Assembly: GCF_036568485.1 (NCBI RefSeq)
Contig: NZ_DATCSL010000089.1
Location: 30,367 to 94,366, forward strand
Source of the DNA: Thiomicrospira sp.
GTDB lineage: Bacteria > Pseudomonadota > Gammaproteobacteria > Thiomicrospirales > Thiomicrospiraceae
DNA length: 64,000 bases
Direction: 5' to 3'
The translations under genes were made by a program, and so were the position numbers. The notes under the pieces are model-generated. The model was not told where the DNA came from. It worked only from the letters and a program-made list of their open reading frames with translations, and did no database searches. Below are positions 1 to 63,929 of this stretch, piece by piece; within the stretch, counting starts at the first letter, position 1; each line of letters starts with the position of its first letter.

Positions 1-586
1 CAGTATAAATGGTTTAGGCTTAGGTTTAGCGACCATGGCCGTTTTGCTCACCTCGAACATTTTGGTTTCGTTGATTCGTCACTGGGTGCCGTCTGAAATT
101 CGCATTCCGGTTTTTATTGCGATTATTGCGGCCGCCGTCACCATTATTGACATGCTGATGCATGCCTACTTTTATACCTTGCACGGCATTTTAGGTATCT
201 TTATTCCACTGATCGTCACCAATTGCGCGATCCTAGCGCGCGCGGAATCTTTTGCCTCCAAAAACTCGCTGGATAAATCAATTGTCGATGCGTTGTTTAT
301 TGGGATTGGGTTTACGATTGTGTTGGTTATTTTAGGCAGTCTGCGTGAACTGGTGGGCAATGGCACGCTGTTTGACCAGGCCTGGTTGTTATTCGGCGAA
401 ACCGCCCGCAACTGGACCTTGCATTTAAGTAGCGATTACACACCCGTATTGCTCGCGATTTTACCGCCTGGGGCCTTTATTGGCTTAGGCTTATTGATCG
501 CGCTAAAAAACTATGCCGATCAACGTCTGAAAAAAACCAAACTATTAAACATTCCGGTTGAGATTAAAGCCTCTTCTACCTCCTAA
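1..586 (+). CDS. rnfE: Rnf/Rsx electron-transport complex subunit E, 5' end cut by the window edge (frame starts at nt 2)
   Basis: The translation (…[16 protein letters not shown]…[18 protein letters not shown]…[11 protein letters not shown]) is collinear with E. coli RsxE. The reading frame is open back to nt 2. Confidence 0.85.
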
Positions 587-594
587 CTTTTTAG

Positions 595-1236
595 ATGAAT
601 AAACTCAAACGCCAACAAATTTTTGATCGTTTAGCGCAAGCGATTCCGGAGCCGGAAACCGAGCTGAATTATTCGACACCTTTTGAATTATTGATTGCGG
701 TGATTTTGTCCGCACAGGCGACGGATAAGGGTGTAAATATCGCCACCGCGAAACTTTTCCCTGTTGCCAATACCCCCGAAGCCATTTATGCGCTCGGCGT
801 GGATGGTTTAAAAAGTTATATTAAAACCATCGGGCTGTTTAATTCGAAAGCAGAAAACATAATTAAAGCCTGTAAAATGTTGGTTGAGCTGCATAACAGT
901 GACGTGCCGCAAACGCGTGAGGAATTGGAAGCCCTGCCCGGCGTAGGTCGAAAAACCGCCAATGTGGTGCTCAATACCGCGTTTGGTCAAATTGCAATGG
1001 CAGTGGATACCCATATTTTTAGGGTATCGAATCGTACCAAAATCGCGCCCGGCAAAAACGTGCTGGAAGTCGAACAAAAACTGCTTAAGTTCACGCCTAA
1101 AGAACATTTAATGGATGCGCATCACTTGCTGATTTTACATGGCCGCTACACTTGCATGGCGCGCAAACCACGTTGCGGCAGTTGTGTCATTTTTGATCTG
1201 TGCGAATTTAAAGACAAAGAAAAATACGTTGAGTAA
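595..1236 (+). CDS. nth: endonuclease III
   Basis: 213 aa with the HhH-GPD motif LPGVGRKTANVVL and a C-terminal 4Fe-4S cluster C-x6-C-x2-C-x5-C (CMARKPRCGSCVIFDLC). It follows rnfE as in enterobacteria. Confidence 0.93.
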   Translation: MNKLKRQQIFDRLAQAIPEPETELNYSTPFELLIAVILSAQATDKGVNIATAKLFPVANTPEAIYALGVDGLKSYIKTIGLFNSKAENIIKACKMLVELHNSDVPQTREELEALPGVGRKTANVVLNTAFGQIAMAVDTHIFRVSNRTKIAPGKNVLEVEQKLLKFTPKEHLMDAHHLLILHGRYTCMARKPRCGSCVIFDLCEFKDKEKYVE

Positions 1237-1254
1237 ATCAAACATAACCCATAT

Positions 1255-1268
1255 CACCAGGCCTGGTG
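1255..1268. repeat. intergenic copy of the iterated palindrome CACCAGGCCTGGTG
   Basis: Exact 14-mer located 19 nt after the nth stop codon. Confidence 0.9.
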
Positions 1269-1287
1269 GTGAAGTTAAAAAATCTTT

Positions 1288-1902
1288 ATGCTGACCTTGT
1301 ATCTTGTTTATTTAGCCGCTTCGGCCGCCGCGATTATTAGCCCAGGCCCGGGTGTGGTGATGACGCTTTCTAATGCGTTGCGTTTTGGTTTTCGTCCTGC
1401 GTTTTACGGCATTTTGGGCATTAGTATCGGCACGATTATTGTCGGTTATTTGTCCGTCACCAGTTTAGGTTTGCTACTTGCGGGCTCAGAAACGGCGTTT
1501 CTGTTGGTGCAAGCGCTGGGCGCGACTTATTTAATTTACCTTGGGATCAAGCTTTGGCGACGCGGTATTGCGGATATTCAGACTGACCAAGCGCATCGTG
1601 GCAAACCCTTGCAACGCTTTATCGAAGGCGTGCTGATTCAATTTACCAACCCGAAACTGATCTTGTTTTTTCTGGCGGTTTTTCCGCCGTTTATGTTGCA
1701 ATCGCAACAGTTAGGCCTAAGTTTGCATTTGTTTGTGCTAAGTTACGGCGGCTTGTTGATTTTAGTTCATCTAGGTTATGCGCTATTGGCGAACCGAGCA
1801 CAACGCTGGTTGCATTCTGATGTTGGGCGTTTGCGTTTAGGCCGAGTCAGCGGCAGTATATTTATCTTTTTCGGCTTGCTCATTGCCTGGTCTGCCTTTT
1901 AA
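1288..1902 (+). CDS. LysE/RhtB family amino-acid exporter
   Basis: 204-aa multi-TM protein with a LysE-type N-terminus (ISPGPGVV…) and the FTNPK motif. Confidence 0.8.
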   Translation: MLTLYLVYLAASAAAIISPGPGVVMTLSNALRFGFRPAFYGILGISIGTIIVGYLSVTSLGLLLAGSETAFLLVQALGATYLIYLGIKLWRRGIADIQTDQAHRGKPLQRFIEGVLIQFTNPKLILFFLAVFPPFMLQSQQLGLSLHLFVLSYGGLLILVHLGYALLANRAQRWLHSDVGRLRLGRVSGSIFIFFGLLIAWSAF

Positions 1903-1928
1903 AATGAGCCATCCCTATCGCCAAAGGT

Positions 1929-1942
1929 CACCAGGCCTGGTG
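1929..1942. repeat. intergenic copy of the iterated palindrome CACCAGGCCTGGTG
   Basis: Exact 14-mer located 27 nt after the LysE stop codon and followed by CTTTTG. Confidence 0.9.
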
Positions 1943-1973
1943 CTTTTGAATTTAGTCTAAGGAAACGCTATTT

Positions 1974-2408: not shown

Positions 2409-2457
2409 ATCCACAAACCCGCTGACAACATTGAGGTCTAAACCAAAGGAATCAAGT

Positions 2458-2667: not shown

Positions 2668-2693
2668 TTCCGATTAATAAGCTTAAACCCTAG

Positions 2694-2713
2694 AAGCACC
2701 AGGCCTGGTGCTT
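2694..2713. repeat. intergenic iterated palindrome, extended to the 20-bp perfect palindrome AAGCACCAGGCCTGGTGCTT
   Basis: Lies about 27 nt after the stop at 2667. Its right arm overlaps the -35 box of the predicted btuB promoter by 2 nt. Confidence 0.9.
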
Positions 2714-2739: not shown

Positions 2740-2747
2740 AATCTCCT

Positions 2748-3073: not shown

Positions 3074-4840
3074 ATGCAAACTCATTACAAATTCAAACCG
3101 CTAATCGCGGCTCTCTTAATAGCACCAGGCCTGGTGTCGGCTGAAAACAGCCTGAACAATATTGTAGTCACCGCCAACCAAGTCGAACAAGACCTTGAAA
3201 AAGTGACATCCGATGTCACCGTTATTACGGCCGCCGAACTCAGAGCCAAACGAGCTAATTCATTAACGGAAATTTTAAATCAGGTTAACGGCTTAAGCTT
3301 TACCCAAAATGGCGGCTTAGGCACGAGTGCCAGCTTGTATACACGTGGTTCGGATAACCAACGTACACTCATTTTAATTGATGGCGTACGGGCGCAAGAT
3401 CCTTCCAATACCAGCGGTGCCAACCTGTCTGACTTAATGGTGGCGAATATTGAACGCATTGAAATTATTAAAGGCGCACAATCTGGTGTTTGGGGGTCTG
3501 ATGCGGCCGCTGGTGTCATCAATATTATTACCAAGCAATCAACTGACACCCAGATTAATGTTGAACACGGTGCCTATAACACTGGCAAATCGGCCATATC
3601 AACCGGTTTTAAACTCGGCGATGCGCGACTTTTCGTGAATGCCTCCCACCTTACAAGCGAAGGATTTAGTGCCCAAGCACCGGTTGATGAAAACATTGAT
3701 CAGTACGAAAAAGATGGCTATACCCATAGTAATGTGGCATTACGTGCGGTTGTACCTATAGCAAAAAACCAACAGCTTACTTTAGCGCACAATGCCACGG
3801 AAGCGCTCGCTAACTACGATAGCTGGGGGGCTCCTAACGCGATTAAACGCTCAAAAAACCGTACCGACCTAAGCCAGATCAGCTATCAAATAGCCGACAC
3901 CAAACTTACCGCTGAACAGTCCGTATTCAGTAGTAAACAGCTGGATGAAACGGCTCCAGACATTGTGCGTGGACAAACGCGCAGTTTGCAGCTAACCCAG
4001 ACATTTAATGATTTCTTACTGGGTGCCGCTTATAGTAGCAATGAAGCCAACTCAGACAAATATTCTAGTTTTATGGAAGAACAAACTTATACTCGTTCAG
4101 CCTTTGCCAACCACAGCACCCGCTGGCGATATTTAACCTTTAATGAAGCTTTACGTTATGACGATTACAGCAATTTTGGTTCAGAAGTGACCGGAAAACT
4201 GGGCGTTAAATTGGATATCACGACCCATCAATCTTTAGCGGTGAATTATGGTACGGCTTATAACGCGCCCAATATTATTCAAATACTGAATCCTTGGGGC
4301 ACCGCTAATCCCGACTTAACGCCCGAAAAGTCCGCAGAGGCCAGCATCTCTTATGCCCTGCACGGCCTAAGCCTTACCTACTTTGATAAAAAAGTCGAAG
4401 ACTTAATCAAATGGAGTACAGGTAGCCAATACCAAAATGTTGAAGGCACCACTCAAATCAAAGGCGTTGAAGCTGAATATAAACGTCGATTCAACGTTTG
4501 GGGTTTGGGGGTGAATTACACTCACTTAAACACTGAAGATGCCAATGGCGACCCGCTCGCCCGTCGACCTGATAACCAAATTGGGCTGGATTTAAATTGG
4601 TATCCAAACGACCAACTCGACATTAATCTAAACGGTCAATATATCGCAACCCGTGGTGGCGATGTCCATACCGCGACCGAAAACTACAGTGTTTGGAATG
4701 GCGTCATTAACTATCAGATCGATCCAACGGTAAGTGCTTATTTGAAACTGAATAACTTGTTTAACACCTATTACCAAGTCGTCGAAGGTTATGCCACCGC
4801 TGAACGCAGTGCTTATCTAGGTTTAAACGCTCGCTTTTAA
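3074..4840 (+). CDS. btuB: TonB-dependent vitamin B12 outer-membrane receptor
   Basis: 588 aa with a signal peptide, the TonB box NNIVVTANQ, a plug domain and beta-barrel, and a C-terminal …[10 protein letters not shown]12 riboswitch precedes it. Confidence 0.88.
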
Positions 4841-4851: not shown

Positions 4852-6339
4852 ATGACCGCCAGTTTAATGATTCAAGGCTGCACCTCCGATGCAGGCAAAA
4901 CCACCTTAGTGGCGGGATTATGTCGGGTATTGGCAAGGCGTGGTGTCAAAGTCGCGCCGTTTAAACCACAAAATATGGCGCTCAATAGTGCCGTTACCGC
5001 CGATGGGGGTGAAATTGGTCGTGCGCAGGCGTTACAAGCACAAGCCGCCAATATCGTCCCCACGGTTCACATGAACCCAGTATTGCTCAAACCCAATAGC
5101 GATACCGGTGCTCAGGTGATTTTACAAGGTCAGTCGATTGGCAACCTAAATGCCCTCGACTACCATGCTTATAAACCCAAAGCCGCGCAAGCGGTGTTCG
5201 ATTCTTTTCAAATTCTGTCAGCTGACTATCCGCTTATTTTGGTTGAAGGCGCGGGCTCGCCTGCTGAAATCAATTTACGCGAAGGCGATATTGCCAATAT
5301 GGGTTTTGCCGAAGCGGTAGATTGTCCGGTGATTCTGATTGCCGACATCGACAAGGGCGGCGTGTTTGCGCATATTGTCGGCACCCTCGCCTGCTTGTCA
5401 GCATCTGAAAGAAATCGAATCAAGGGGTTTGTGATTAACCGTTTTCGCGGGGATATCGCATTATTGCAAGACGGATTAGATTGGCTGGAACGTGAAACCG
5501 GCAAACCCGTTTTAGGTGTATTGCCTTATTTACACGGCTTACACCTTGATGCCGAAGATGCGGTTGGTTCGTTTGAATATAACCACGAAGCACACGAAGG
5601 TCACGAAGTTTTAAAAGTGATTGCCCCGTTGTTTCCGCATATTTCCAACCATACCGATCTTGATCCGCTGATTCAACATCCTCAGGTGGATTTTACATGG
5701 GTCAAACATAACGAGCCGATTCCGGCGGCGGACTTAGTGATTCTGCCGGGCAGTAAAAGTGTGATGGCAGATTTGGATTGGCTACAAAACCACACTAGCC
5801 ACCAGGCCTGGTTGCCTTATTTGCACAAACATTGTCGTTATGGCGGCAAACTTATCGGCATTTGTGGCGGCCTGCAAATGCTGGGCACACTGATTAACGA
5901 CCCGCACCATATTGAATCTGATCAAACCCAAATACCTGGTCTGGGATTAATGAATTACACCACGACCTTTTACCCGCACAAACAACTCATCAATCGCCAA
6001 GGTTTGTTGCAGCTACCAGGCCTAGTTGAACCAGTCAAAATCAGCGGTTATGAAATCCATCAAGGCCAAACCGACTTTAGCCAATATGCCCCCGCTATCC
6101 ATTGGCAAAACGGCGACACCGATGGCGCCGTGTCAGACGATAATCAAATATTCGCCACCTACTGTCACGGCTTGTTTGACCAACCGCAAGCCCTGCAAAA
6201 CCTGCTTAACTGGGCAGGCCTGGTGCAAGCACAAGCCTTCGACCTCAATCAACAACGCGAACAACAACTCAACCGTTTAGCGGATACGTTAGAGCAGCAT
6301 TTAGCGATGGATAAAATACGGGAACTCATACAGCCATGA
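4852..6339 (+). CDS. cobQ: cobyric acid synthase
   Basis: 495 aa with an N-terminal [10 protein letters not shown] nucleotide loop and a C-terminal GATase-like [10 protein letters not shown]. Confidence 0.92.
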
Positions 6340-9904: not shown

Positions 9905-9944
9905 CACCAGGCCTGGTACTATCACTTCACCACCAGGTCTGGTT
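9905..9944. repeat. two adjacent copies of the iterated palindrome (CACCAGGCCTGGTA and the variant CACCAGGTCTGGTT)
   Basis: Copies at 9905-9918 and 9931-9944, 12 nt apart. They lie at the right edge of the AT-rich islet, downstream of the SPFH gene stop on the minus strand. Confidence 0.85.
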
Positions 9945-10712: not shown

Positions 10713-12121
10713 GTTACATCCTCCTTTTGTGGATTTTCAGAATCCAGCGGCTCAACGCTAAGAATCAGGTTTTTAAGACCGGTGACTTTGACGGTTTGCG
10801 CTTTCTTTAGAGGCTTATGGGTGATAGCTTGCCAATGTTCTCCGTGCATAATGACTGAACCTTTTTCATCAAAATCTTCAATCACCACCGCTTCACTGCC
10901 AATCAAAGCCTCCAAACCGCTGACGATTTGACTACGAGTGGATTTCACCGCCAACCACAATATTGCGCCTAACACCAATACACTCAAAACCGTAAGACTA
11001 ATAATCAAGGATAAATCGATGCCATAAGCCGGTTGATCGGTATCCATTAAAATGATGGAACCGATCACAAACGAGGCAATACCGCCCAGTCCCAATACAC
11101 CAAAACTCGGATCAAACGCTTCAGCAATCATCAACGCGACCCCGAGAAAAATCAGCGCCAAACCAGCATAATTAACCGGCAATAATTGAAAGGCATACAA
11201 AGCCAGCAATAACGCAATCGCCCCCACAATGCCTGGAAAAAAACCACCTGGATTAAAAAACTCCAGAATCAGGCCATAAATGCCGACTAAAAGCAGAATA
11301 TAGGCAATATTGGGATTGGTGATCACACTCAATAATTGACTGCGCCAATCGGGTAAAATTTCGACGACTTGGGCATTAGCGGTATTAAGTTGATGGGGTT
11401 GCTGATGAATAATGACCTTACGGCCATCAAGCTGATTTAATAAATCGGCTCGACTGTTGGCAATTAAATCAATCACATTTTGCTTTAACGCTCCATCTGC
11501 GGATAAACTCGCAGCTTGGCGCACGGCTTTTTCCGCCCATTCGGCATTGCGTCCACGCAGTTGCGCCAAACCTTGAATGTAAGCAACCGCATCATTGATG
11601 ACTTTGCGTTTAGACGGGTCTTGCATGGCCTGCTCTAACCCAGCCTCGTTAGGTGCTTGGGTTTCGCTGGTATTATCTGACGCGGAACTGGGTTTGATGT
11701 CTGGCGGAGAAAACCCGCCGATTTGTACGGGCGTTGCCGCACCAAGATTCGTGCCGGGCGCCATTGCCGCAATATGACTGGCATACAGAATATAAGTACC
11801 CGCGCTGGCGGCTCGTGCGCCGCTGGGTGACACATAGGTTACGACCGGAATGTTGGCATTAGCGATGTTTTTGATAATCGCGCGCATAGCCGAATCTAGG
11901 CCACCCGGCGTATCCATTTTCAGAATAATAAGTTGGGCTTGCTGAGCTTCGGCTTTTTGAATACCGCGTTGAATATAATCCTGAGTGGCTGGGCCGACGC
12001 CGCCCCCAATGCTCAATTCAACCACCAGGCCTGGTGCTTTATTGGCTGAGACATTATTGAAACCCAATAAGGCCATTAAAATAAATGCCCAAAGCGTAAA
12101 ACGGCTTGTAATTCGCTGCAT
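10709..12121 (-). CDS. NfeD-family membrane-bound ClpP-class serine protease
   Basis: 470 aa with a signal peptide, a ClpP-like domain, a multi-TM segment and a C-terminal NfeD OB-fold. It pairs with the SPFH gene in the classic arrangement. Confidence 0.85.
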
Positions 12122-13143: not shown

Positions 13144-14085
13144 ATGAATCACCCTACTAAAAACTCGACACCCGCTAAAAATAAAACGGTTTCATTGGTG
13201 TTAGGCAGCGGTGGCGCACGTGGTTTAGCGCACATTGGCGTGATTCGTTGTTTAGAAGAAAAAGGTTACCAAATTTGCTCGATCTCCGGTTGCTCGATGG
13301 GCGCGTTAATTGGCGGCCTCTACGCCACCGGCAAACTCGATGCTTATGAAGACTGGTTAAAACAGCTCAGCAAAACCGAGTTACTAGGATTAATAGATGT
13401 ATCTTGGAACAGCAGTGGCCTGATTAAAGGCGAAAAACTCTTTAATAAACTGGCCGATTTTTTGGGTGATGTGCAAATCGAAGATTTGGATATCGCCTAC
13501 ACCGCTGTGGCGACCGACATTGATCACGAAAAAGAAGTTTGGCTGCAAACCGGTTTGTTGCATAAAGCGATCCGTGCCTCAATTTCATTACCCATGATTT
13601 TCACACCATATGAACATCATGGCATGACATTGATTGATGGCGGGGTGCTCAACCCAGTGCCGATCGCCCCCACTTTTAGCGACCACAATGATTTAATTAT
13701 TGCGGTGAACTTGGGCGGTAAACCCCAAGACAAGGTGCAAGAGACGCCTGAAAACGACAAGCAAAACTCGTCTGAATCGTCTGATTGGTTAGGTCACCTA
13801 AACGGTATAACCGATACGATTAAAGATTTTTTTGTCGAGAAATTTGGTCAGCAAAAAGACAAGTCCATAGGACTGGATTGGGATGTGCTGGATATCAGTA
13901 ATCGTGCCTTCGACAGCATGCAAAACACCATTGCCCGCCAAAAACTGGCGAGTTATCCGCCAGACTTTACAATTGATATTCCGCGTAATGCCTGCGGCAT
14001 GTTGGAATTTAACCAAGTTGAGCGCATGGTGAAATTAGGTTATGAACAAGCTGAAAAAGCCTTAAGCACCAGGCCTGGTAATTAA
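13144..14085 (+). CDS. patatin-like phospholipase (RssA-like)
   Basis: Contains GSGGARG (oxyanion), GCSMGA (GxSxG) and the DGG catalytic Asp. The last five codons are supplied by an iterated palindrome copy. Confidence 0.85.
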   Translation: MNHPTKNSTPAKNKTVSLVLGSGGARGLAHIGVIRCLEEKGYQICSISGCSMGALIGGLYATGKLDAYEDWLKQLSKTELLGLIDVSWNSSGLIKGEKLFNKLADFLGDVQIEDLDIAYTAVATDIDHEKEVWLQTGLLHKAIRASISLPMIFTPYEHHGMTLIDGGVLNPVPIAPTFSDHNDLIIAVNLGGKPQDKVQETPENDKQNSSESSDWLGHLNGITDTIKDFFVEKFGQQKDKSIGLDWDVLDISNRAFDSMQNTIARQKLASYPPDFTIDIPRNACGMLEFNQVERMVKLGYEQAEKALSTRPGN

Positions 14086-15165: not shown

Positions 15166-16247
15166 TGTCTCAACACGGTGGTCAATTTTTTGAGTTTGCT
15201 CAACGCCAAGGTTTAAGCCCGCAACAAGCTTTGGCGAGAGTATTGGATTTTTCCGCCAGCATTAACCCAAACCAACCGCGTTACGATTTAACCCTGCAAC
15301 CGGCTTTATGGTCACATTATCCGCCACAACAAGCACACGATTTGCGGGTGGCGATCGCTGAAAAGTTTCAGTTAGCTACCGATCATATTCGTTTAACCAA
15401 TGGCATTTCGAGCGCGATTTTGAGTTTGTTTGCGCACTTGCGCCCTCACACCACCCTGCTTTTCACGCCCTTGTACGGCGAATATCAGCGGGCAGCGGCG
15501 TTTTATAGCCAAACCACGATTGAGCTTAAACGCGATTTTAATCAGCCTGACCACCAGGCCTGGTGCTTGCCCGATCTGCCAGCCAATAGTCTGGTGGTAT
15601 TTGTGAATCCCAGCACGCCGGATGGCCATTATTATGCGCCACATAAACTCGAAAAACTGATTGCCCATTGGCGTAAACAAGATTGTTGGGTGGTGATGGA
15701 TGAATCCTTTTTGCCATTTTTGGGATTTGAGCATGATCTCAGTTTTCGCCGATACCTGAAAGACTGGCCAAAGCTCATTATTATGCAATCCTTAACCAAA
15801 TATTACGCTTGTCCAGGTTTGCGTGTGGGTGCGGTGTTTGCGCAACCGGACTGGCTAAAAACTTGGCCACAAGCAGCTTGGCCGATTTCTTATCTGGATA
15901 GTCAATTATTGCAACAAGCGCTACAAGACCCAGACTTTGATAACCACAACCAGGCCTGGTTGTTGAGCGCCAAAGCCGATTTAATCCAACGCCTGCAAAG
16001 TTGTACGTTGCTCAAAAAAGTGATGCCGGGTTCAGCCAATTTTGTATTGGTGCAAACCCAACAGCCGGCTCAACAGATTGCCCAAGCCTTGGAGGATCAG
16101 CAGATTTTAGTCCGAGCTTGTGATAGTTTTGGGGTCGAATTAGGCCAAGATCACCTGCGCATTTCCGTGCAAACCCCGACTCACCACCAACGTTTAATAC
16201 ACGCTTTTAACCAACTTAACCAGGAAACACCCCATGCTATTATTTGA
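15165..16247 (+). CDS. cobD: threonine-phosphate decarboxylase (class I/II aminotransferase fold)
   Basis: 360 aa with the PLP-lysine context QSLTKYYACPGLRVG. It sits between cobO and cbiB. Confidence 0.8.
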   Translation: MSQHGGQFFEFAQRQGLSPQQALARVLDFSASINPNQPRYDLTLQPALWSHYPPQQAHDLRVAIAEKFQLATDHIRLTNGISSAILSLFAHLRPHTTLLFTPLYGEYQRAAAFYSQTTIELKRDFNQPDHQAWCLPDLPANSLVVFVNPSTPDGHYYAPHKLEKLIAHWRKQDCWVVMDESFLPFLGFEHDLSFRRYLKDWPKLIIMQSLTKYYACPGLRVGAVFAQPDWLKTWPQAAWPISYLDSQLLQQALQDPDFDNHNQAWLLSAKADLIQRLQSCTLLKKVMPGSANFVLVQTQQPAQQIAQALEDQQILVRACDSFGVELGQDHLRISVQTPTHHQRLIHAFNQLNQETPHAII

Positions 16248-17160
16248 TCCCAGCTGGATTTTAATCAGCGCCTTATTAGCGATCCTTTTCGACCGATTTT
16301 TTGGCGAATTTATGGGACGTGCGCATCCAGTAATTGGGCTGGGAAAACTGATTAGCTGGTTTGAAAAGCGATATTATGCCGATTCGATTTTACGCGGTGC
16401 CGGTTTAGTTTTTAGCTTGTTGATATTCAGTTTATTGGCCGCCACAATCGTCAGCTTGTTACTGTTTACCCTGCCTTTATGGCTGCACTTATTCATTAAT
16501 GGTTTATTAGCTTCGACCTTGATTGCGCATCGTATGTTGCGTGACCAAGTGGCCGGTCTCATCACCCACCCGCAACCTCAACAAGCCGTGGCGATGTTAG
16601 TGAGCCGCGACACACAAGACCTGGATCAAAGTGATTGTTTTAAAGCGGGTGTCGAAACCTATGCGGAAAATTTAAGCGATGGCGTCATTGCACCGATGTT
16701 TTACTTTTTATTGTTTGGCCTACCAGGCCTGGTTGTTTACAAGGCGATCAACACCATGGATTCAATGGTCGGCTATCGCAACGCACGCTACGAGCGTTTT
16801 GGTAAGGTCGCGGCACGTTTGGATGACGTGGCAAACTGGTTACCGGCTCGCATCACGGCCTTATGGATGGCATTGCTGAGTTCCAAAGTTGGACTGTTTA
16901 GTTGGTGGCGTCAAGCAGGTGGGCATGCCAGCCCCAACGCGGGTTATCCAATTGCGGCGATGGCTTGGCGAATTGGTGCACAGTTGGGCGGCCCCACCCG
17001 CTACTTTGGTGAGCTGACGGATAAACCCTATTTTGGTGATCCACAGTCACCCAAACAACTGGAGGCCAGCCATTTAAAACGGGCGTTAAGTTTAAGCTTG
17101 CCGCTCGACTTAGGCATGATTTTATTGATCTTAATTGGGCTGCTTTATCATGTGGTTTAA
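16234..17160 (+). CDS. cbiB: adenosylcobinamide-phosphate synthase
   Basis: 308-aa CobD/CbiB-family membrane protein (…AHPV…MDSMVGY…GHASPNAG). Confidence 0.9.
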   Translation: MLLFDPSWILISALLAILFDRFFGEFMGRAHPVIGLGKLISWFEKRYYADSILRGAGLVFSLLIFSLLAATIVSLLLFTLPLWLHLFINGLLASTLIAHRMLRDQVAGLITHPQPQQAVAMLVSRDTQDLDQSDCFKAGVETYAENLSDGVIAPMFYFLLFGLPGLVVYKAINTMDSMVGYRNARYERFGKVAARLDDVANWLPARITALWMALLSSKVGLFSWWRQAGGHASPNAGYPIAAMAWRIGAQLGGPTRYFGELTDKPYFGDPQSPKQLEASHLKRALSLSLPLDLGMILLILIGLLYHVV

Positions 17161-30126: not shown

Positions 30127-32648
<2,522 letters not shown>

Positions 32649-44726: not shown

Positions 44727-44748
44727 AAAGCACCAGGCCTGGTGCTTT
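44727..44748. repeat. intergenic iterated palindrome extended to the 22-bp perfect palindrome AAAGCACCAGGCCTGGTGCTTT
   Basis: Lies about 20 nt downstream of the cheW stop on the minus strand and upstream of the EAL/HDOD gene. Confidence 0.9.
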
Positions 44749-50377: not shown

Positions 50378-51542
50378 TTGACATCTCCTTGCCCATACCA
50401 ATTCGGTATAACAAATCGTCATTCGTATTATTGATTTGCTGGCCCAATACGATCGCACGATCAATTAATTCATTGGCACTCATTTTCTGCAAGTCTTCTG
50501 GTACACGCTGACCAACCGAGACATAGGCCATTGGTAACTCGGTTTCAATCAAAACACTAATCACATTACCCAATTGCAAAGCCTCATCAACCTTAGTCAA
50601 AATACAACCCTTCAATACAACTTGACCAAAGGAATTAACGATATCTCGCATTACATTTAATTGAGTGGCGGCAGATAAAACCAAATAATTTCTAACCGAA
50701 CCGGCTCCTGCGTGACCGGATGTTAATTGCTGAGATAATTGCAAATCGCGCTGGCTCATACCTGCTGTATCAATCAGAACCAAACGCTTCATGTTTAATG
50801 ATGATAAAAGTGCATAGAGTTCACCCTGGGTATTGGCGACATATACTGGAACACCAATTAATTCTGCAAAGGTGCGCAACTGTTCCTGTGCGCCAATTTT
50901 GTAGCAATCTGTTGTAATCAAAGCGAGTTGATTGGCACCATAACGCATAACGAAACGACTGGCTATTTTAGCGATAGTTGTGGTTTTACCCACGCCTGTC
51001 GGCCCAACTAAAGCAACAATGCCTCCGCCATCAATAATGTCTCGTTCATGCTTGGGAATTAAGCTTTCAATATCCTGCAACAGAAATGACCAGGCCTGCT
51101 CCTCGTCCTGTTGTACGTCTTTAACCAGTCTTTGGCTCAGCTCCCAGCTTAAACCAAGGCCCATTAGACGTTTTAGTAAACTAACTTTATTAGGTTGAGC
51201 AATTTCAGATTGACCCCAGGCCAATCCAGATAATTGCTGCTCTAACAGGTTACGCACCGCTTGAAGCTCTTGCGACATTCTGTCCAGCTCTGATCCGGGC
51301 ATACTGGCCATACTTGGTGGGGTTGCAAAGTGTTGGTCGATTGGCGCTTTATAAGTCGCGTGTTTTTGTTCACGCTGACTTTGTTGATAGTGTTCGATCG
51401 CTTCTGGGTCAATAGCCGCGACCACTTCTACCCCTTCTGACAAGGTTCGGGTAGACAGGATCACCGCTTCAAGGCCTTGATCCTCACGAACCTTGACCAT
51501 AGCCTGTCGCATTGTTGGTGCAACATAACGCTTAATTTTCAC
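50367..51542 (-). CDS. flhF: flagellar biosynthesis SRP-type GTPase FlhF
   Basis: (M)KIKRYVAPTMRQAM N-terminus and GPTGVGKTTT. The GTG at 51542 has AGGAG 7 nt upstream. Confidence 0.9.
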   Translation of the reverse strand: MKIKRYVAPTMRQAMVKVREDQGLEAVILSTRTLSEGVEVVAAIDPEAIEHYQQSQREQKHATYKAPIDQHFATPPSMASMPGSELDRMSQELQAVRNLLEQQLSGLAWGQSEIAQPNKVSLLKRLMGLGLSWELSQRLVKDVQQDEEQAWSFLLQDIESLIPKHERDIIDGGGIVALVGPTGVGKTTTIAKIASRFVMRYGANQLALITTDCYKIGAQEQLRTFAELIGVPVYVANTQGELYALLSSLNMKRLVLIDTAGMSQRDLQLSQQLTSGHAGAGSVRNYLVLSAATQLNVMRDIVNSFGQVVLKGCILTKVDEALQLGNVISVLIETELPMAYVSVGQRVPEDLQKMSANELIDRAIVLGQQINNTNDDLLYRIGMGKEMSNAQ

Positions 51543-51562: not shown

Positions 51563-53653
51563 TCACCCATTCCCAACATTTGCTACCACACTAATTTGTC
51601 GATTTTCTGGCACTTCCGAGTAAGCTAAAATATGCAAACTCGGCAAACTGAATTTAAATAAGCGCGCCAATTGTGCCCGAATCTGCGGCGCCACCAATAA
51701 AACGGGAGCCTGACCTTCCATTTCAACTTTTTGAGATTCTTCTTTTAAGGTTCCATGCAAACGTTCTGCCAGGCCTGGTTCAATAGCCAACTGACCATCT
51801 GGCGCACCTTGAGTGGCCTGCAACAATAGCTGCTCCAGCGACGGTTCAAGCGTAATAACCTTCAACTCTGAGTTCATGCCCACAATATCTTGAATAATCG
51901 AGCGCCCCAAGGCTGCGCGAACATGCATAATAAGTTGAGAAGGGTCTCGCGTTTGCCCTACCTTTTCAGAAATGGCCTCAACGATTGTTCGCATATCACG
52001 AATTGAAATCTTTTCTTCTAACAAGCTTTGTAATACCTTCACTAACACAGCAAGTGATAACTGGTCAGGAATCAACTCATCCACCAATTTAGGCGAGGTC
52101 GCTTTTAATTTATCAAGTAATTGTTGGGTCTCATCAAAACCTAACAACTCAAAAGCATAATCTTGAATAACCTGACTTACATGCGTCGCCACGACAGTAC
52201 TGGCATCGACGACGGTATAACCCAGCGCTTGCGCTTGATCACGATCCACAGGATCAATCCAAACCGCTTCGAGACCAAAAGTCGGATCTTTAGTTGGTGT
52301 TCCGGCTATCTCACCATAAACGTTACCAGGGTTAATAGCCATTTCACGATCTGGCATAACCTCACCTTCACCCGAAGGCACGCCCATTAGCATGATTCTA
52401 TACTGGTTCGGTTTTAAGTCCAAATTGTCACGAATATGCACAGGTGAAACTAAAAAACCCAAGTCTTGAGATACTTTACGACGAACACCACGAATTCGTT
52501 CTAACAACTGACCATTTTGAGATTGATCCACCATCGGAATTAAGCGATAGCCGACTTCTAATCCGAGCACATCTACATTTTGAACGTCGTCCCAATCCAG
52601 TTCAGCTGGTTTCGATTCCTCAGCGAAATCCGGTTCTATAATGTTGCTCTGTACCGCCAGTTTTTTCTGTTGGTTCAGGTAAATAAAATAAGCGCCGATA
52701 CCCGCTAACACAGCAAACGACAAGAACGCAACATTTGGCATACCCGGGATCAGACCCATCGCGCCAACAATTCCAGCCGTCACAGCTAAGGCTTGTGGAC
52801 TCGAAAACATTTGCGATTCAAATTGCTCACCCATGTCTTCTTTGTCACCTGATACTCGGGTGACAATAATCGCAGTAGCCGTCGATAAAAGTAATGCCGG
52901 AATTTGTGCAACCAAGCCATCACCAATAGTGAGCAGCGTGTAAACTTCAACCGCCTCACCAAAACTCAAACCATGCTGCCCCACCCCAATCGCAAAACCA
53001 CCAATAATATTGATGACCAAAATAATAATGCCCGCAATCGCATCACCCCGGACAAACTTACTCGCACCATCCATTGAGCCGTAAAAATCGGCTTCCATGG
53101 TAATTTCTTTACGCCGTTCTTGCGCTTCTTCCTGTGTAATCAAGCCGGCATTTAAGTCAGCATCAATCGCCATTTGCTTACCTGGCATCGAATCCAAGGT
53201 GAATCGCGCGCTGACTTCAGCAACTCGTCCGGCCCCCTTAGTCACTACCACAAAATTGATAATCACCAAAATTGCGAAAATAATAATACCAACTGCATAA
53301 TTGCCACCAATAACAAACTCACCAAACGCTTCAATCACTTTCCCGGCGGCATCGCCCCCGTTATGGCCCTCAAGCAAAATAACGCGAGTTGATGCAATAT
53401 TCAGTGACAAACGGAACAAGGTCGCAATCAAAATAACGGTCGGAAAGACGGCAAAATCCAAGACACGTTTAGCGTATACCGTCACCATCAAAACAACTAA
53501 AGAAATCACGATATTAAAGGTGAAGAAAACATCCAACAAAAGTGGAGGAAGCGGAATCGTAATCATGCCTAACAAGGCTAAAATCAATATTGGTGCCCCG
53601 AGCCCACTTTTTAGCCATTTTTTAGCTTGTTGAAAAATTTGCTGAATATTCAT
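51563..53653 (-). CDS. flhA: flagellar type III export gate protein FlhA
   Basis: 696 aa of the FHIPEP family. Confidence 0.97.
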   Translation of the reverse strand: MNIQQIFQQAKKWLKSGLGAPILILALLGMITIPLPPLLLDVFFTFNIVISLVVLMVTVYAKRVLDFAVFPTVILIATLFRLSLNIASTRVILLEGHNGGDAAGKVIEAFGEFVIGGNYAVGIIIFAILVIINFVVVTKGAGRVAEVSARFTLDSMPGKQMAIDADLNAGLITQEEAQERRKEITMEADFYGSMDGASKFVRGDAIAGIIILVINIIGGFAIGVGQHGLSFGEAVEVYTLLTIGDGLVAQIPALLLSTATAIIVTRVSGDKEDMGEQFESQMFSSPQALAVTAGIVGAMGLIPGMPNVAFLSFAVLAGIGAYFIYLNQQKKLAVQSNIIEPDFAEESKPAELDWDDVQNVDVLGLEVGYRLIPMVDQSQNGQLLERIRGVRRKVSQDLGFLVSPVHIRDNLDLKPNQYRIMLMGVPSGEGEVMPDREMAINPGNVYGEIAGTPTKDPTFGLEAVWIDPVDRDQAQALGYTVVDASTVVATHVSQVIQDYAFELLGFDETQQLLDKLKATSPKLVDELIPDQLSLAVLVKVLQSLLEEKISIRDMRTIVEAISEKVGQTRDPSQLIMHVRAALGRSIIQDIVGMNSELKVITLEPSLEQLLLQATQGAPDGQLAIEPGLAERLHGTLKEESQKVEMEGQAPVLLVAPQIRAQLARLFKFSLPSLHILAYSEVPENRQISVVANVGNG

Positions 53654-54802: not shown

Positions 54803-55582
54803 CTAGACTGAATTAAGTTGCAAAAGTTGAATGGTTTCCATGGCGCGGGTCAGTAACTCTTGCAAATGGGGCAAGATCATAGGCGTGGTATAAATCATCA
54901 TCACCAGGCCTGCTAATAAGGTGATTGGAAAACCAACGGCAAAAATGTTTAAGGCGGGTGCCGCACGTGTGATCACACCAAAAGATATATTAATTAACAA
55001 CAAGGCTGTAATAGCAGGCAAGGCAATTAAAACCCCTGCCGAAAACATATAACTACCAAACTCATACACCAGTTTAAAACTTTCTGTCGTGAGCATTTCA
55101 GCCCCTACAGGCAAGTAATGAAAACTATCAACAACCGCATAGATCACCATTAGGTGGCCATTTAAGGCTAAAAAGAGCAAGGTTACGATAATGGTAAAAT
55201 ACTGTGATACCACTGGCGCTTGAACCCCACTTGCAGGGTCAACCATTGAGGCAAAGGCCAAACCCATCCCCATGGCAATCATATGCCCAGCCATCACAAA
55301 TGCTTGGAAAACCACCAGAAAAATGATGCCCATCGCTAAACCGATTAGTATTTGCTGCATGATATACATTAACCCCAGCCAAGTGAACGGATCAACCGGC
55401 GGAGGCAAGGCCAACATAGGGGCAACGGCAATAGTAATCAATACCGTCAGAATCAGACGCGAGCGAACCGGAACTGAGCGCATGCCAAATAAAGGAATAA
55501 TTGACAACATCGCGCCAATCCGCACAAACGGCCAGAAGTACAAGCCTATCAATTGAAGAAGTTCTTGATAGGTAAAAGACAT
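54803..55582 (-). CDS. fliR: flagellar export protein FliR
   Basis: 259-aa polytopic protein in the order fliP-fliQ-fliR-flhB. Confidence 0.92.
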   Translation of the reverse strand: MSFTYQELLQLIGLYFWPFVRIGAMLSIIPLFGMRSVPVRSRLILTVLITIAVAPMLALPPPVDPFTWLGLMYIMQQILIGLAMGIIFLVVFQAFVMAGHMIAMGMGLAFASMVDPASGVQAPVVSQYFTIIVTLLFLALNGHLMVIYAVVDSFHYLPVGAEMLTTESFKLVYEFGSYMFSAGVLIALPAITALLLINISFGVITRAAPALNIFAVGFPITLLAGLVMMIYTTPMILPHLQELLTRAMETIQLLQLNSV

Positions 55583-56607: not shown

Positions 56608-57058
56608 CAGTATATCTTTGCTTTAAAGCATCTTGAAGGCGCTGCGAGAAAGAAGGTTTTACAGTTGTTTGATCCTGTTCTTCAATCACGATGGGCTCGG
56701 CTAGTTCATGTAACCTTGTAATACGGCTAGGTGTCACACCAACCAATAACTGTTGGCTGCCCACCTGTAGTAGCATGATGCGCTCTTTTTGTCCGACTGA
56801 AAGCATGCCTAAAACACGAAGTTGGCCATCAGCCACCGCGGAAAAACGCCCATATCGTTTCACCAGCCAAGCACCTATAAAAATAATAGCCAACACCAGA
56901 AGTAATGAAATCATAATCTGGCCTAAGTAGTCACCAGGCCTGATTAAAGATCCACCGATTTCGCTGTTATTGGTTGCTGATTCGGATGCCATAGCCGTGC
57001 CGGCTAACATCATCAAACCAACTATTAATACTGACAGCAAGCACTTAAGGCGTATCAT
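56594..57058 (-). CDS. fliO: flagellar protein FliO
   Basis: 154 aa with a single TM helix, lying between fliN and fliP. Confidence 0.8.
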
Positions 57059-59079: not shown

Positions 59080-59125
59080 GCTTGTATTCCTAATTATTAT
59101 TTAATTGAAAATTGTAACACCAAAA

Positions 59126-60007: not shown

Positions 60008-60019
60008 GCTGATTTGTCA

Positions 60020-60871: not shown

Positions 60872-60926
60872 TGTATATTTACCCTTTCTATAAAACGATA
60901 AGGCTCAGACGCTTATCTTATATAAC

Positions 60927-60940
60927 AACCAGGCCTGGTA
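60927..60940. repeat. intergenic copy of the iterated palindrome (AACCAGGCCTGGTA)
   Basis: Lies 19 nt downstream of the MCP stop on the minus strand and upstream of motA. Confidence 0.85.
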
Positions 60941-60958
60941 CCGATGCCTAGATGCTAT

Positions 60959-61972
60959 TTAGTGTTTAATAACATTGGTTAATGCGTCTTGAGCAGATTT
61001 TAACTGATTTAAACTGGTTGCAATATCATGCAAGAAATCACTGACCTTGCCGGCTTGAGTTTGCGTATTCTCTACACGCTCTTGACCATGTTCCATGACC
61101 TGAACAGCGTTTCGGGCACGCTTCTGTAACTCTTCAATAATCGTTTGAATTTCGGTTGTCGCCTGCTGAGTTTTACCAGCCAATATTCTAACCTCATCCG
61201 CAACGACCGCAAACCCCCGGCCATGCTCACCCGCACGTGCGGCTTCAATCGCAGCGTTAAGTGCTAGTAAGTTTGTCTGTTCAGCAATGTCCCGAATTAA
61301 CACCAAAACTGTGCCGATATTGCTACTATCGGATTCGAGCTGTTTAATCACCTCGGTTGCACGCGTTACTTCTTCAGTTAAGCCACTCACTTCGGTTATT
61401 ACGTTTTCAGCCGAAGACATACCCGCCGCTGAGCCGTGGCTCATACGTTCAACCGCCTGTTCAACTTGCTCAGACAATTCAAAAAGCTCACTCATATCCA
61501 GGCCATTTTCAGCAGCCGCACGTACTTCTTCTGTTTCTTCCTGCGCACTGCTTAAGGCGGCATTCAAATTGTTTACTTGTTGTTGCAAACCTTCAATTTC
61601 AGCTTGATAGTTAGACACCTCTTTTGAACGTTGGTCTAACTTTACTTGCGCCTGCTCAAGCAGCTGATTAAGTGCTTTTAATAATTTTGGGTTCGTATTT
61701 GGTGCTTTCAAAACCTGATCAAAGCGATCATCACTGCCTACTTGGTTTAGTTCATCAACCAACTCAGACTGCTCACAAACACCCGCCTTATTACACCATA
61801 ATAAGTAGACTAATGCACTAACGATTACAGCTGTCACCCCGACGGCAACCGCAACAAACCCAATCATCGAGCCGGTTGTAATATCAGTGCTCGCTATACT
61901 GATTGCGGGCAAACCTAGCCCACCTATAAACAGTCCTGTGCTAACGGCTTTCATTTGTCTACTCCTAAGCAT
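60959..61972 (-). CDS. short methyl-accepting chemotaxis protein without a recognisable ligand-binding domain
   Basis: 337 aa with an N-terminal hydrophobic segment and a coiled coil. The MCP hairpin-tip signature is [29 protein letters not shown], with only about 85 aa after the tip. Its start overlaps the fliK stop by 8 nt. Confidence 0.85.
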
Positions 61973-63929
61973 AAAAATCGATCATATTATCTGTTTGTTT
62001 TTTGACTGAAGGTGACTCAACCTCCCCTTCACTTGCAGTATTTGAAACGCTGGCTGCATTGGTTTTTGCTGATTCTGCTGTTTGATCTTGGTTGGATTGT
62101 TCAAAAGCATCCTCATCCTCTACCTTAACCTCATCAAAACTGATACCTGCTTCTTCTAGCATTTCTTTTAATCGTGGGATAGCCGCCTCCAATGCTTCAC
62201 GTGTCGCACCATGCTGGGCGGTCATTGATACCGTCACCATTTGATCTCGATCTAACTGTAAACGCAATTGGATCGGTCCAAGCTTCTCTGGATTAAGACT
62301 AATTTGTGCCTGTTGCATCTGCTGGTTCGCCATAAAAACGATACGCTTACCCACTGACTGAGCCCACTGAGGGTGACGCAAAGGATATGCTATTGAAGCC
62401 AAGGCCGGTGCGCTTGACTTACGTTCCGCTCCGGTTGATGCGACACCTAGTAATTCCAATTCGCCCTCAGCATTGGCGGCTTTATACTTCACATCAGAAA
62501 CTTTTAAAGCTTCTTGCTGTTGCTGCGCCCACTGATCCTTTAAATTTAAATTCATTGCTTGCTGTTGCAAATTAGACTGGTTCAACTGTTGTTGAGACGT
62601 TTGCACTGGCGCTTGAATATCGTTTAATGGCTTGGAGGTTGCCTCATTTGTCGCCGCTTTAAGCTGAACTTTGTCAGCTAACGCGTTAGGATTAGCTGGC
62701 TGAGCTTGACGATTTAGCGCCGCTTGCGCCATGCCAGCTAAACCCTGCGGCGCGGCTTGCTGGGCAGCTTGTGAATTCACAGGAGTAAAAGCGCTCGCTT
62801 GATTGAGCGCTGAGTTAAGGCCTTCTTCAGCTTCCAGAAGATTCATCTCTAAGTCAGGATTTAGCAACTCTTTGCCGTCATCGGCCTTAACTGCTGGGGC
62901 AGGCTGGTTTATGACTTCATTCAACTGACTAGGGATCTGTAAAGTTTGCACAAAACCGACAATCTCCTCCAGACGAGCCAAGTCTTCTTCACTCAGGTTC
63001 TCAACAGCCAAAGCATCGGAAGATAAAAGCTCGGTCAAAGCCTCCAAGGTTTCAAGTCCGTCCAAATCACTGAATTCAGTTTCAACTGACCTTAAACCGG
63101 CAAGATTAGCCTGGTCGGCAGACACACTATCCAATAATTTTTGCGCGCGTGGCAATAAATGTTTTTGAATGAAATCTGTCAGTAATGGCGAATCATCGGA
63201 TGCTGGATCTAATTCAAACTGAGCCTTCAAACCTTGACTCTGCGCCATATCCAACTCAAATTTCACCGATGGCTTCTCTTGTTTGAGAAAAGCCACGAAT
63301 TGCTGCAGTGAATCATTAAACTCGGCTACCGCTAAATGTTTCTGCTCAGGCGTTTCGGCATCTTTTAAGGCCGCAAGCATCGATTGCATGGAGGCTTTAA
63401 GTTCATCGAAGCGCTCGTTTAATTCAGATAGCACTTGAGGAGTTAACTCGTCTGAAGGCACATCTTCAAGCGCCTCAGAAACAGCAACCAGGCCTGGTTG
63501 CTGTTCTAGCGTTGTATCTAGCATCGCATCTAAATCAGCCAACTCCGAAACCAATTCAGCATCAGCCCCTTCAGATACCGAAAGACTTTGTGGCACATCT
63601 CCTGTAAAAGAGGTGGCCAAACCCTGCTGAGCCAACCAGCTAGAAAGCTGCTCGAACATGCTCTCGTCGGATTCCAAATCCACATCAAAAGACAACTTCT
63701 CAGCAAAAGCTTGCAAAGATTGGGGGTCTACTTTTTTAAGGTCTGACAAGGCCGCTAAGTCTAAGTTGCCTTTTTGATACTCCGCCATCATGAGTGCACC
63801 CAACTGGGTAGAGAAATCACTCTGAGCCTCTGGGGCCGCATCCGATAAGAGTAAAGATGGGGTTTCAGGACGATTGATAAACCCAAACATAGGGGGGGTT
63901 GCTCTTGTGTCCGGTGCTGTGTTCAGCAT
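61965..63929 (-). CDS. fliK: flagellar hook-length control protein FliK
   Basis: 654 aa, Q/A/E-rich and low in complexity, with a C-terminal Flg_hook domain (…[29 protein letters not shown]…). Confidence 0.85.
63480..63505. repeat. 26-bp perfect palindrome AACAGCAACCAGGCCTGGTTGCTGTT inside fliK
   Basis: Centred on the iterated-palindrome core at 63488-63497. It encodes EQQPGLVAV on the minus strand. Confidence 0.9.

Follow-up and report, generated by a model that had tools for sequence, protein, structure and literature searches.

Few hyper-abundant signature words are known from genomes, namely the DNA uptake sequence (DUS), the uptake signal sequence (USS), the highly iterated palindrome HIP1 and Chi (in E. 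coli, GCTGGTGG), and their origin is still debated. HIP1 of cyanobacteria (GCGATCGC) is a palindrome of genes as well as spacers, over-represented hundreds-fold (about 0.3-2.7 per kb), made by substitution and conserved beyond the neutral level; its one-off variants favour the outermost positions, and in some lineages the palindrome is extended (PMC4390886, PMC5861425). A cognate methyltransferase that recognises the nested core, and accompanies the word wherever it abounds, is the hallmark of such highly iterated palindromes (HIPs) according to Elhai (2015; PMC4390886). In published work methylated HIP1 has been linked to transformation better by up to more than 100-fold, a Chi-like role has been proposed for HIP1, and its abundance was found to correlate phylogenetically with proteins belonging to the Type IV secretion system, which its authors read as a link to DNA uptake. 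Dialects of DUS are described for Neisseriaceae (PMC3630211). Here we report the palindromic 10-mer CCAGGCCTGG from a 64-kb stretch of DNA of Thiomicrospira sp. (contig NZ_DATCSL010000089.1, positions 30,367 to 94,366 of the forward strand; hereafter the window). We found no prior description of this word in the open-access literature searched, including the genome paper of strain XCL-2. We show that it marks the chromosomes of Thiomicrospira and Hydrogenovibrio as a signature palindrome that is not mobile and is made in place by point substitution, and that a strong sequence-specific force at the DNA level maintains it, overriding codon usage and sometimes the amino-acid sequence.

The window holds 25 exact copies of the word (0.39 per kb, the palindrome covering both strands), nested within 42 AGGCCT and 32 copies of the 8-mer CAGGCCTG; 22 of them extend to the 12-mer ACCAGGCCTGGT and 10 to the 14-mer CACCAGGCCTGGTG. 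The expected number is 0.02 by dinucleotide shuffles and 0.03-0.23 by Markov models of orders 1-4 (0.03-0.06 with the copies masked from training), and the excess over chance is about 1000-fold. An unbiased k-mer census returned the word and its sub-words as the sole hyper-abundant 8-, 10- and 12-mers of the window. The invariant core is CAGGCCTG, and the consensus in the clade of the window is (A)(S)CA-CCAGGCCTGG-TG(S)(T). Ten further copies carry one mismatch, and in seven of these it lies at position 1/10. Nineteen of the 25 exact copies lie in open reading frames (ORFs), with the frames intact, and six are intergenic. Words of the DUS/USS type are short and over-represented at least 100-fold, at about 0.3-1 per kb, in genes and spacers and on both strands, and the present word agrees with this. 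Other arrangements of two CCWGG sites (CCTGGCCAGG, CCAGGCCAGG, CCTGGCCTGG) and spaced versions of them gave 0 copies against 86 of the word, and so did 10-mers that keep the CCAG..CTGG arms with an altered centre (e.g., CCAGATCTGG).

These numbers agree closely with a preliminary description made from the letters of the window. Its 25 start coordinates are all exact and no copy was missed, its counts of 12-mers and 14-mers were reproduced, the ten one-base variants that it listed as a minimum are precisely the ten present, and the excess of several hundred-fold that it had estimated held when compared with shuffles and Markov models (25 observed against 0.02-0.23 expected). Its assignment of 19 copies to intact coding sequences (CDSs) was likewise reproduced, the remaining six being intergenic, and the gene names it gave (rnfE, btuB, cobQ, nfeD, patatin, cobD, cbiB, cobS, cobC, cobT, hisZ, miaA, mutL, tsaE, cheA, flhA and fliK) are correct, partly on the basis of Pfam. 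What it overlooked is that the 8-mer CAGGCCTG is the real core and that the flanks covary into long perfect palindromes.

The spacing of the copies is random to clustered (coefficient of variation 1.09 vs. 0.95 ± 0.17), by which regular spacing is rejected, and the closest pairs are 77-400 bp apart. The density along the window is uneven. The first 20.3 kb, with the rnf, btuB and cob genes, contain 16 of the 25 copies (binomial P about 9e-4), a gap of 11.8 kb at 20.2-32.0 kb is free of copies, and 19 kb of flagellar and chemotaxis genes have only 4.

The window comes from an uncultured Thiomicrospira; its FlhA is encoded on a metagenome contig, and its MutL is 100% identical to an NCBI protein of 'Thiomicrospira sp.'. 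Relatives were compared at loci around mutL (about 12-22 kb per relative), graded by the identity of their MutL to that of the window; copies at orthologous sites in these loci are not independent counts. The numbers of 10-mers were 5 in 15.8 kb of L005 (metagenome-assembled genome Kmv17, MutL identity 89%), 5 in 16.9 kb of L057 (88%), 3 in 11.7 kb of L058 (81%), 9 in 21.8 kb of L059 (75%), 5 in 15.5 kb of L060 (72%), 8 in 21.9 kb of L061 (69%), 4 in 21.8 kb of L064 (68%), 3 in 21.9 kb of L062 (T. microaerophila, 67%), 2 (and 7 cores) in 21.9 kb of L063 (GCA_053527895, 68%) and 0 (and 2 cores) in 14.9 kb of L006 (68%). In most of these 10 further Thiomicrospira loci CCAGGCCTGG is the top 10-mer, in all of them its core is the top palindromic 8-mer, and the density of the word among them (MutL identities 89% to 67%) is 0.09-0.41 per kb. 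In Hydrogenovibrio, there are 7 copies in 21 kb of the XS5 genome (GC 50%) and 4 copies in 21 kb of H. crunogenus SP-41 (GC 42%). A metagenome scan with an 18-mer gave more enriched contigs, three of them with a GC content of about 51%, and the ArgG of these is 99% identical to that of 'Thiomicrospira sp. XS5', which we take to be a Hydrogenovibrio. In one metagenome contig (LZQR01000107.1), glnS, argG and a dicarboxylate symporter gene are each broken into several ORFs relative to the XS5 genome, which looks like frameshift errors of that assembly. No 10-mer and no dominant k-mer were found in the single locus (21.9 kb) of Thiomicrorhabdus sp. ZW0627 (MutL identity 62%), and three Burkholderiaceae loci, 64 kb in total, have 0 copies of the 10-mer. 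The word is a family-level trait of Thiomicrospira and Hydrogenovibrio, at GC contents of 42-51%; it is neither a compositional effect nor confined to the window, a possibility that the preliminary description had raised.

The flanks of the core differ between clades, being cA..Tg in the clade of the window, aA..Tt in that of T. microaerophila and S..S in L063, a member of the L006/L063 lineage (Thiomicrospira BF2_24/GCA_053527895) in which the 10-mer has decayed. The word is thus shared family-wide, with clade dialects around an invariant core (its absence from Thiomicrorhabdus being that of one locus), and these dialects match the dialect pattern of DUS. In the L006/L063 lineage the 10-mer has been lost at the conserved QAW sites of hisZ, miaA and mutL, which now read CAAGCTTGG or CAGGCTTGG, and new copies of the core have appeared with ...CTGC flanks, e.g., in mutL (VPGLLI) and tsaE (QAGLL). 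This may represent a dialect shift to SCAGGCCTGS or a decay of the system. Another candidate dialect, CAAGCTTG, occurs three times in 15 kb of the motif-poor L006 and encodes three of its four QAW, numbers that are too small for a call.

Codon alignments of nine syntenic genes from up to 12 genomes revealed no indel at any copy site; the copies differ from their orthologous sequences by substitutions only. Hence point substitution is how copies arise, as orthologues were expected to tell, and the view of the preliminary description that the word is not a miniature inverted-repeat transposable element (MITE), a repetitive extragenic palindromic (REP) element or an insertion scar was borne out. 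A longer mobile repeat unit, which it had considered as something that might have escaped notice, was not seen either, the sequences beyond about 5 nt of flank being unrelated. Some gains are synonymous, such as CAA GCT TGG to CAG GCC TGG in miaA and mutL, and others changed amino acids, such as YQ(E/Q/S)W to YQAW in hisZ, FQPW to HQAW in mutL and AGLLI to PGLVV in tsaE.

Only two reading frames are freely used by the word, PGL(V) and (H/N)QAW, each nine times, while the frame containing AGG is used once, at a C-terminus. In the window, each of the 11 instances of the tripeptide QAW is encoded by CAGGCCTGG, for which codon usage predicts about 10%, and the tripeptide itself is nine times as frequent as expected from amino-acid composition. 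The same 100% usage of CAGGCCTGG for QAW holds in every motif-bearing relative and is broken only in the decayed lineage. Similarly, 9 of 14 PGL tripeptides in the window are encoded by CCAGGCCTG (1.3% expected). When PGL is followed by a codon starting with G, 9 of 11 instances carry the word, and when it is followed by another codon none of three carries even the 8-mer; therefore the full 10-mer is what is driven in the clade of the window. Between genomes, the identity at fourfold sites is 0.35-0.46 outside the copies, i.e., saturated, whereas 30 of 32 such sites are identical inside them, and the 10-mers of the window were retained in 18 of 21 within-clade comparisons (0.08-0.5 expected per genome).

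In 318 kb of motif-rich sequence we counted 97 exact copies, 26 variants at position 1/10 and 5 interior variants (4.2 expected by chance). The bias of one-off variants towards the outer positions (26 of 31 pooled) is that seen in words of the HIP1 class. At position 1/10 the substitutions are C to G in 18 cases, C to T in 8 and C to A in none, so that G:C is preferred over A:T at the edge of the core, which indicates duplex recognition. A reading of the T variants at position 1 as RNA wobble was replaced by a coding constraint, since the codon before QAW ends in a silent third base and TGG cannot change.

Two features go beyond the preliminary description, the covariation of the flanks and the occurrence of copies in resident prophages. 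In the window, the arms extend beyond the consensus by complementary bases with a mean of 2.24, compared with 1.52 ± 0.19 under shuffled pairing (P = 0.0006), and the effect holds for CDS copies alone (P = 0.002) and for independent non-orthologous loci (P = 0.0003); extensions of at least 4 nt number 13 against 4.1 expected. Perfect palindromes of 18-26 nt result inside cobD, cobS, mutL, tsaE and fliK, and one of 32 nt in the MutL linker of L005. At this linker site the arms have changed in a compensatory way, AAAGCA..TGCTTT in L005 and L057 corresponding to CAACCA..TGGTTG in L058. As single-stranded DNA (ssDNA) the long palindromes fold at -8.7 to -16 kcal/mol, and the bare 14-mer at -2.8 kcal/mol (z = -1.4). 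The word is also over-represented between genes, with 6 intergenic copies against 2.1 expected, 5 of which lie 21-47 nt past a stop codon, and in Hydrogenovibrio many copies form bidirectional terminators with an A-tract and a T-tract. Enrichment in terminator hairpins 3' of genes is a property of DUS as well. A simple consensus scan for terminators was not discriminating (35 found vs. 25 ± 6 in shuffles).

A scan of IMG/VR with the 14-mer gave 28 single matches at chance level and only two contigs of this host group (L028 and L031). One host-group phage contig carries genes for an integrase, a CI-like repressor, an antirepressor, YqaJ and SSB, and the other for a terminase, a portal, a baseplate, a diversity-generating retroelement (DGR) reverse transcriptase and a spanin; in both, the word is found inside phage genes. 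Both contigs have about 0.3 cores per kb, and a 98%-identical prophage has about 0.1 per kb; phages that are more distant, 1.18 Mb in all, have 0.003 per kb. Resident prophages thus bear the word at a reduced to near-host density of about 0.1-0.3 per kb. The element represented by L028, L068 and L069 (IMGVR_UViG_3300000558_000429 and 2788499856_000001) is a myovirus-like prophage with a DGR-type reverse transcriptase (phrog_1423, E = 1e-101) beside its tail genes.

The preliminary description had preferred a methyltransferase-linked bias of the very-short-patch (VSP) repair type as the cause of the word, and this part of it was not supported. With the copies masked, CCWGG is depleted in the window (59 vs. 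89 ± 9) and so is GGCC (190 vs. 252 ± 15), while CTWGG/CCWAG (200 vs. 204 ± 16) and AGGCCT (10 vs. 11) occur as expected. The signature of Dcm-Vsr, an excess of CCWGG with a deficit of CTWGG/CCWAG, was therefore rejected, CCWGG showing the opposite and CTWGG/CCWAG no effect. We also observed a mild over-representation of AGGCTT/AAGCCT outside the word (61 vs. 42 ± 7); together with the depletion of CCWGG and GGCC, its possible causes are restriction avoidance or the conversion of near-cognate sites. Among the genes of the window there is none for a methyltransferase, a restriction enzyme or competence. Inventories of methyltransferases were taken from the literature on sister strains rather than from the genome of the window, and no cytosine methyltransferase is conserved among them. 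According to supplementary files 4 and 5 of Blow et al. (2016; PMC4752239), the sole predicted DNA methyltransferase of T. pelophila DSM 1534 is a Type I enzyme; T. kuenenii has two and Thiomicrospira sp. MA2-6 three Type I enzymes, all of these being m6A methyltransferases, H. marinus combines one Type I enzyme with one of Type III, and T. crunogena XCL-2 has one Type I enzyme and one m5C gene, Tcr_0658 (PMC4752239). Single-molecule real-time (SMRT) methylomes of five strains of the family contain no m4C or m6A motif like the word (PMC4752239), SMRT being blind to m5C. Tcr_0658 lies within the prophage Tcr0656-0700 of XCL-2, and this prophage is missing from SP-41, which carries the word.

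We tentatively favour, at somewhat less than an even chance, the reading that the word is a self-DNA recognition word for transformation or recombination, comparable to DUS, USS and HIP1, which spread by molecular drive and was reused in terminator hairpins. The preliminary description had named two alternatives, that the word signals uptake or that an abundant DNA-binding protein binds to it, and these are now favoured over its methyltransferase idea. A symmetric, probably dimeric DNA-recognising component of a natural-transformation pathway that favours self-DNA would read the word, acting at uptake or at a processing step before recombination. Alleles bearing the word would be taken up or recombined preferentially, so that each position able to hold it cheaply would convert and then stay converted, and copies 3' of genes would be reused as terminator or 3'-end hairpins. 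The extra complementarity of the arms could help recognition by such a receptor, through kinking or cruciform extrusion, or could be a by-product of template switching at the hairpin-prone core. Several observations weigh against this reading. We found no uptake or transformation data for the Thiomicrospira/Hydrogenovibrio family in the open-access literature. Neither palindromy nor covariation of the flanks is a trait of the known DUS and USS, whereas this word is palindromic with strongly covarying flanks. The spacing is random to clustered and the saturation at the codon level is complete, both of which fit a site-autonomous force better than a gain per fragment taken up, which would show diminishing returns. 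Finally, interior one-off variants stand at the chance level beside the 97 exact copies, a halo tighter than that reported for DUS and USS. A quite unlikely explanation is that a dedicated, methylation-independent system writes and polices the word site by site within the cell, as a sequence-specific activity of mismatch- or hairpin-directed repair or conversion that turns near-cognates into CCAGGCCTGG and extends the arms by self-templating. Such a system would explain why synonymous saturation is total and interior variants are at chance level, why the arms covary and why prophages carry copies; if it is real, the word would be not an uptake signal but a new kind of genome-writing drive that reshapes proteins (excess of QAW and PGLV).

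Conversion of near-cognates could also be directed by methylation, if a C-methyltransferase recognised a nested site (CCWGG, GGCC or AGGCCT) and mismatch-directed repair turned related sequences into the word. The palindromic form with its nested Type II-like sites, the near-lack of interior variants and the total synonymous saturation are consistent with this, as is the concentration of the one-off deviations at the outer bases, both in the window and in the pooled sequence, which Elhai reported for HIP1 (PMC4390886). The QAW sites of the decayed lineage, CAAGCTTGG and CAGGCTTGG, differ from the word by C to T at the inner cytosine of Dcm type, on one strand or on both, but ordinary transition bias gives the same decay, and several gains require transversions, e.g., CCA to GCC in mutL. 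With no conserved cytosine enzyme in sister strains, the only m5C gene lying in a prophage that the motif-bearing SP-41 lacks, and sub-sites that are depleted (CCWGG) or normal (CTWGG/CCWAG, AGGCCT) outside the word, we regard this mechanism as very unlikely. Selection at each site for chromosome maintenance appears unlikely to a lesser degree; the word would then be a bidirectional Chi-like signal for end processing of the RecBCD/AddAB type, or would be bound by an abundant dimeric nucleoid protein. In the Chi-like version, two back-to-back 5'-CCTGGTG(G) words could be read from either side, and since more copies would be slightly better, very large populations would fill the cheap positions. 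The half-site ...CCTGGTGG shares seven of eight bases with Chi of E. coli, the site-autonomous saturation and random spacing fit selection per site, and the phages of these hosts carry copies; phages profit from the Chi of their host. The preference C > G > T >> A at the outermost core position (18 G, 8 T and no A) likewise points to readout of the duplex by a protein. The palindrome itself cannot be oriented, but its asymmetric extension CCAGGCCTGGTGG favours the locally G-rich strand by 30:13 in the window and the relatives, a bias for which base skew, the coding strand and shared ancestry are confounding factors; unlike this TGG-extended form, the TGC and TT extensions of the half-site are balanced between strands. 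However, only about 22% of half-sites have the TGG extension, the word, at 0.4-0.5 per kb, is about ten times as dense as Chi in E. coli, and the excess of about 1000-fold is far above that of known Chi sites. We know of no Chi that is palindromic, and the covariation of the flanks is left unexplained.

That covariation would be explained by an element defined by its structure, either a cruciform or a hairpin of ssDNA or RNA, with a tip that is sequence-specific, whose arms grow via selection for pairing or intrastrand template switching and which would act in the formation or stability of transcript 3' ends or at an ssDNA step of replication, repair or incoming transforming DNA. The arm complementarity above shuffled pairing, the perfect palindromes of 18-32 nt within genes (fliK and the mutL linker of L005), the compensatory double changes at one orthologous site (L005/L057 vs. 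L058), the free energies of the ssDNA hairpins and the position of five of the six intergenic copies past stop codons all support pairing. But most copies comprise just 10-14 nt, for which the hairpin is weak, the GGCC 'loop' and the inner stem never vary, so that sequence must be read besides pairing, and the tolerance of G but not A at position 1/10, G producing a G-G mismatch in the hairpin, is not what pairing predicts. The simple terminator scan also lacked an overall enrichment. We consider this explanation quite unlikely. Least probable of all, to the point of being negligible, is a miniature mobile element, an insertion scar or an artefact of assembly or composition. It would be suggested by an abundant short palindrome of which some copies are intergenic, yet an origin from mobile elements such as REP, MITE or Rickettsia palindromic elements (RPEs) is refuted by the codon alignments, in which orthologous sites show substitution and never insertion, with frames intact and flanks unrelated. 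The word also recurs in independent assemblies of isolates and metagenomes with GC contents of 42-51%, and its Markov and shuffle expectations are below 0.25.

Along the window, the exact copies start with a 12-nt palindrome in rnfE (375..386, frame QAW), followed by two intergenic 14-nt palindromes, one 21 nt past the stop of ORF 595-1236 (1255..1268) and one 29 nt past the stop of ORF 1288-1902 (1929..1942), the second continuing into CTTTTGAATTT and terminator-like. A 20-nt perfect palindrome (2694..2713) is intergenic, shortly upstream of the cobalamin riboswitch of btuB. This riboswitch (2736-2943, + strand; Rfam RF00174, 99.7 bits) lies upstream of btuB, and the palindrome adjoins a -35 box predicted for its promoter (TTGCAA at 2712). 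Next are a 14-nt copy in btuB (3123..3136, PGLV), a 12-nt copy in cobQ (5801..5812, QAW), an intergenic 12-nt copy (9906..9917) 47 nt downstream of the Band-7 gene 9963-10712 (- strand), a 14-nt copy in nfeD (12023..12036, PGLV) and a 12-nt copy in the final codons of the patatin gene (14068..14079), the sole one in the TRPG frame. In the cob region, cobD has a 14-nt copy (15552..15565, QAW) and an 18-nt perfect palindrome (15946..15963, QAW), cbiB a 12-nt copy (16722..16733, PGLV), cobS an 18-nt perfect palindrome (18123..18140, PGLV), cobC a 12-nt copy (18939..18950, QAW), and cobT a 12-nt (20014..20025, PGLV) and a 10-nt copy (20211..20220, QAW). Beyond the copy-free gap, hisZ has a 12-nt copy (32039..32050) encoding YQAW, which is YQ[E/Q/S]W in other lineages; miaA a 10-nt copy (36950..36959, QAW), replaced by CAAGCTTGG, CAGGCTTGG or QVW in other lineages; mutL an 18-nt perfect palindrome (38079..38096, HQAWW; FQPW in the Thiomicrorhabdus outgroup); and tsaE a 20-nt perfect palindrome (42117..42136, PPGLVV). 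A 22-nt perfect palindrome (44727..44748), with an ssDNA hairpin of -8.7 kcal/mol, is intergenic, 25 nt downstream of cheW. The remaining copies comprise 12 nt in the final codons of cheA (45308..45319, PGLV), 10 nt in flhA (51769..51778, PGLA), 12 nt between genes, 21 nt downstream of the MCP-signal gene 60959-61972 on the - strand (60928..60939), and a 26-nt perfect palindrome in fliK (63480..63505, QQPGLVAV) with an ssDNA hairpin of -11.7 kcal/mol.

Sites that keep only the core CAGGCCTG were found in cobQ (6215..6222, GCAGGCCTGG), cobS (18549..18556, CCAGGCCTGC), a DnaJ-domain gene (24892..24899, GCAGGCCTGG), the mutL linker (38475..38482), where the orthologous site of L005 is an exact 10-mer within the 32-nt perfect palindrome, flhF (51091..51098, CCAGGCCTGC), the fliR-type ORF 54803-55582 (54905..54912, CCAGGCCTGC; PF01311) and fliO (56935..56942, CCAGGCCTGA). 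Other one-mismatch copies are CCAGGCCCGG at 1342..1351, with the change at an interior position, CCAGGCCTAG at 6016..6025 in cobQ, which encodes PGLV, and the intergenic CCAGGTCTGG at 9933..9942. The GC skew is negative along the entire + strand of the window, from -0.04 rising to -0.14 (15609 C and 12813 G), and from 18 kb on the genes are nearly all on the - strand; the window lies within a single replication arm, the - strand being the G-rich one.

The word brings a new lineage to the short list of such signatures, that of sulfur oxidisers from vents and soda lakes, for which cultured strains, complete genomes and SMRT data exist. It combines traits that are separate elsewhere, i.e., a HIP1-like palindrome apparently without a cognate methyltransferase, terminators and dialects like those of DUS and USS, and arm covariation within genes, and thereby offers a clean test case for whether signature words serve uptake, serve recombination or result from directed repair. 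Should uptake play a part, the word would point to natural transformation in a group for which we found none reported. In practice, it can serve as a taxonomic marker for binning, it marks host-adapted prophages, and it may improve genetic tools for these autotrophs.

The likeness to HIP1 and to DNA uptake sequences proposed in the preliminary description was borne out in density and behaviour. Like HIP1 and the alternate HIPs of cyanobacteria, the word is a GC-rich perfect palindrome, hyper-abundant and born by substitution, with variants at the outer positions. It differs from HIP1 in being longer (10-14 nt, with a core of 8), in its gammaproteobacterial host, in the lack of an evident cognate Type II methyltransferase in sister strains and of sub-site enrichment outside the word, in the covariation of arms up to 32 nt and in the use of copies as terminator stems. 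With DUS of Neisseriaceae and USS of Pasteurellaceae it shares its density, fold-excess, family-level conservation and clade dialects, as well as genic copies with preferred frames and altered peptides, terminator hairpins 3' of genes and a lower density in prophages; those words, however, are asymmetric and form terminators from inverted pairs, whereas here a single word is its own inverted repeat, and the irregular spacing and the chance-level halo of interior variants depart from the main DUS/USS pattern. Like Chi of E. coli (GCTGGTGG), it is an over-represented chromosomal word, with a half-site (CCTGGTGG) that matches at seven of eight bases and an extension mildly biased to the G-rich strand, but it is palindromic, roughly ten times denser, enriched about 1000-fold rather than several-fold, and has the TGG extension in a minority of half-sites. 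REP elements and bacterial interspersed mosaic elements (BIMEs), MITEs and RPEs are likewise short scattered palindromes, and RPEs may sit in frame within genes, but these spread by insertion of a unit, while the present word has no unit or indel and is built base by base at pre-adapted sites. In its two abutting CCWGG sites it recalls the Dcm-Vsr bias, the excess of CCWGG in E. coli, and directed mismatch repair could give site-autonomous conversion; outside the word, however, there is no CCWGG excess or CTWGG deficit, the effect is larger by orders of magnitude, and sister strains have no reported Dcm or Vsr genes. Hyper-abundant words are a known kind of genomic feature, and every member known so far differs from the present word in defining respects.

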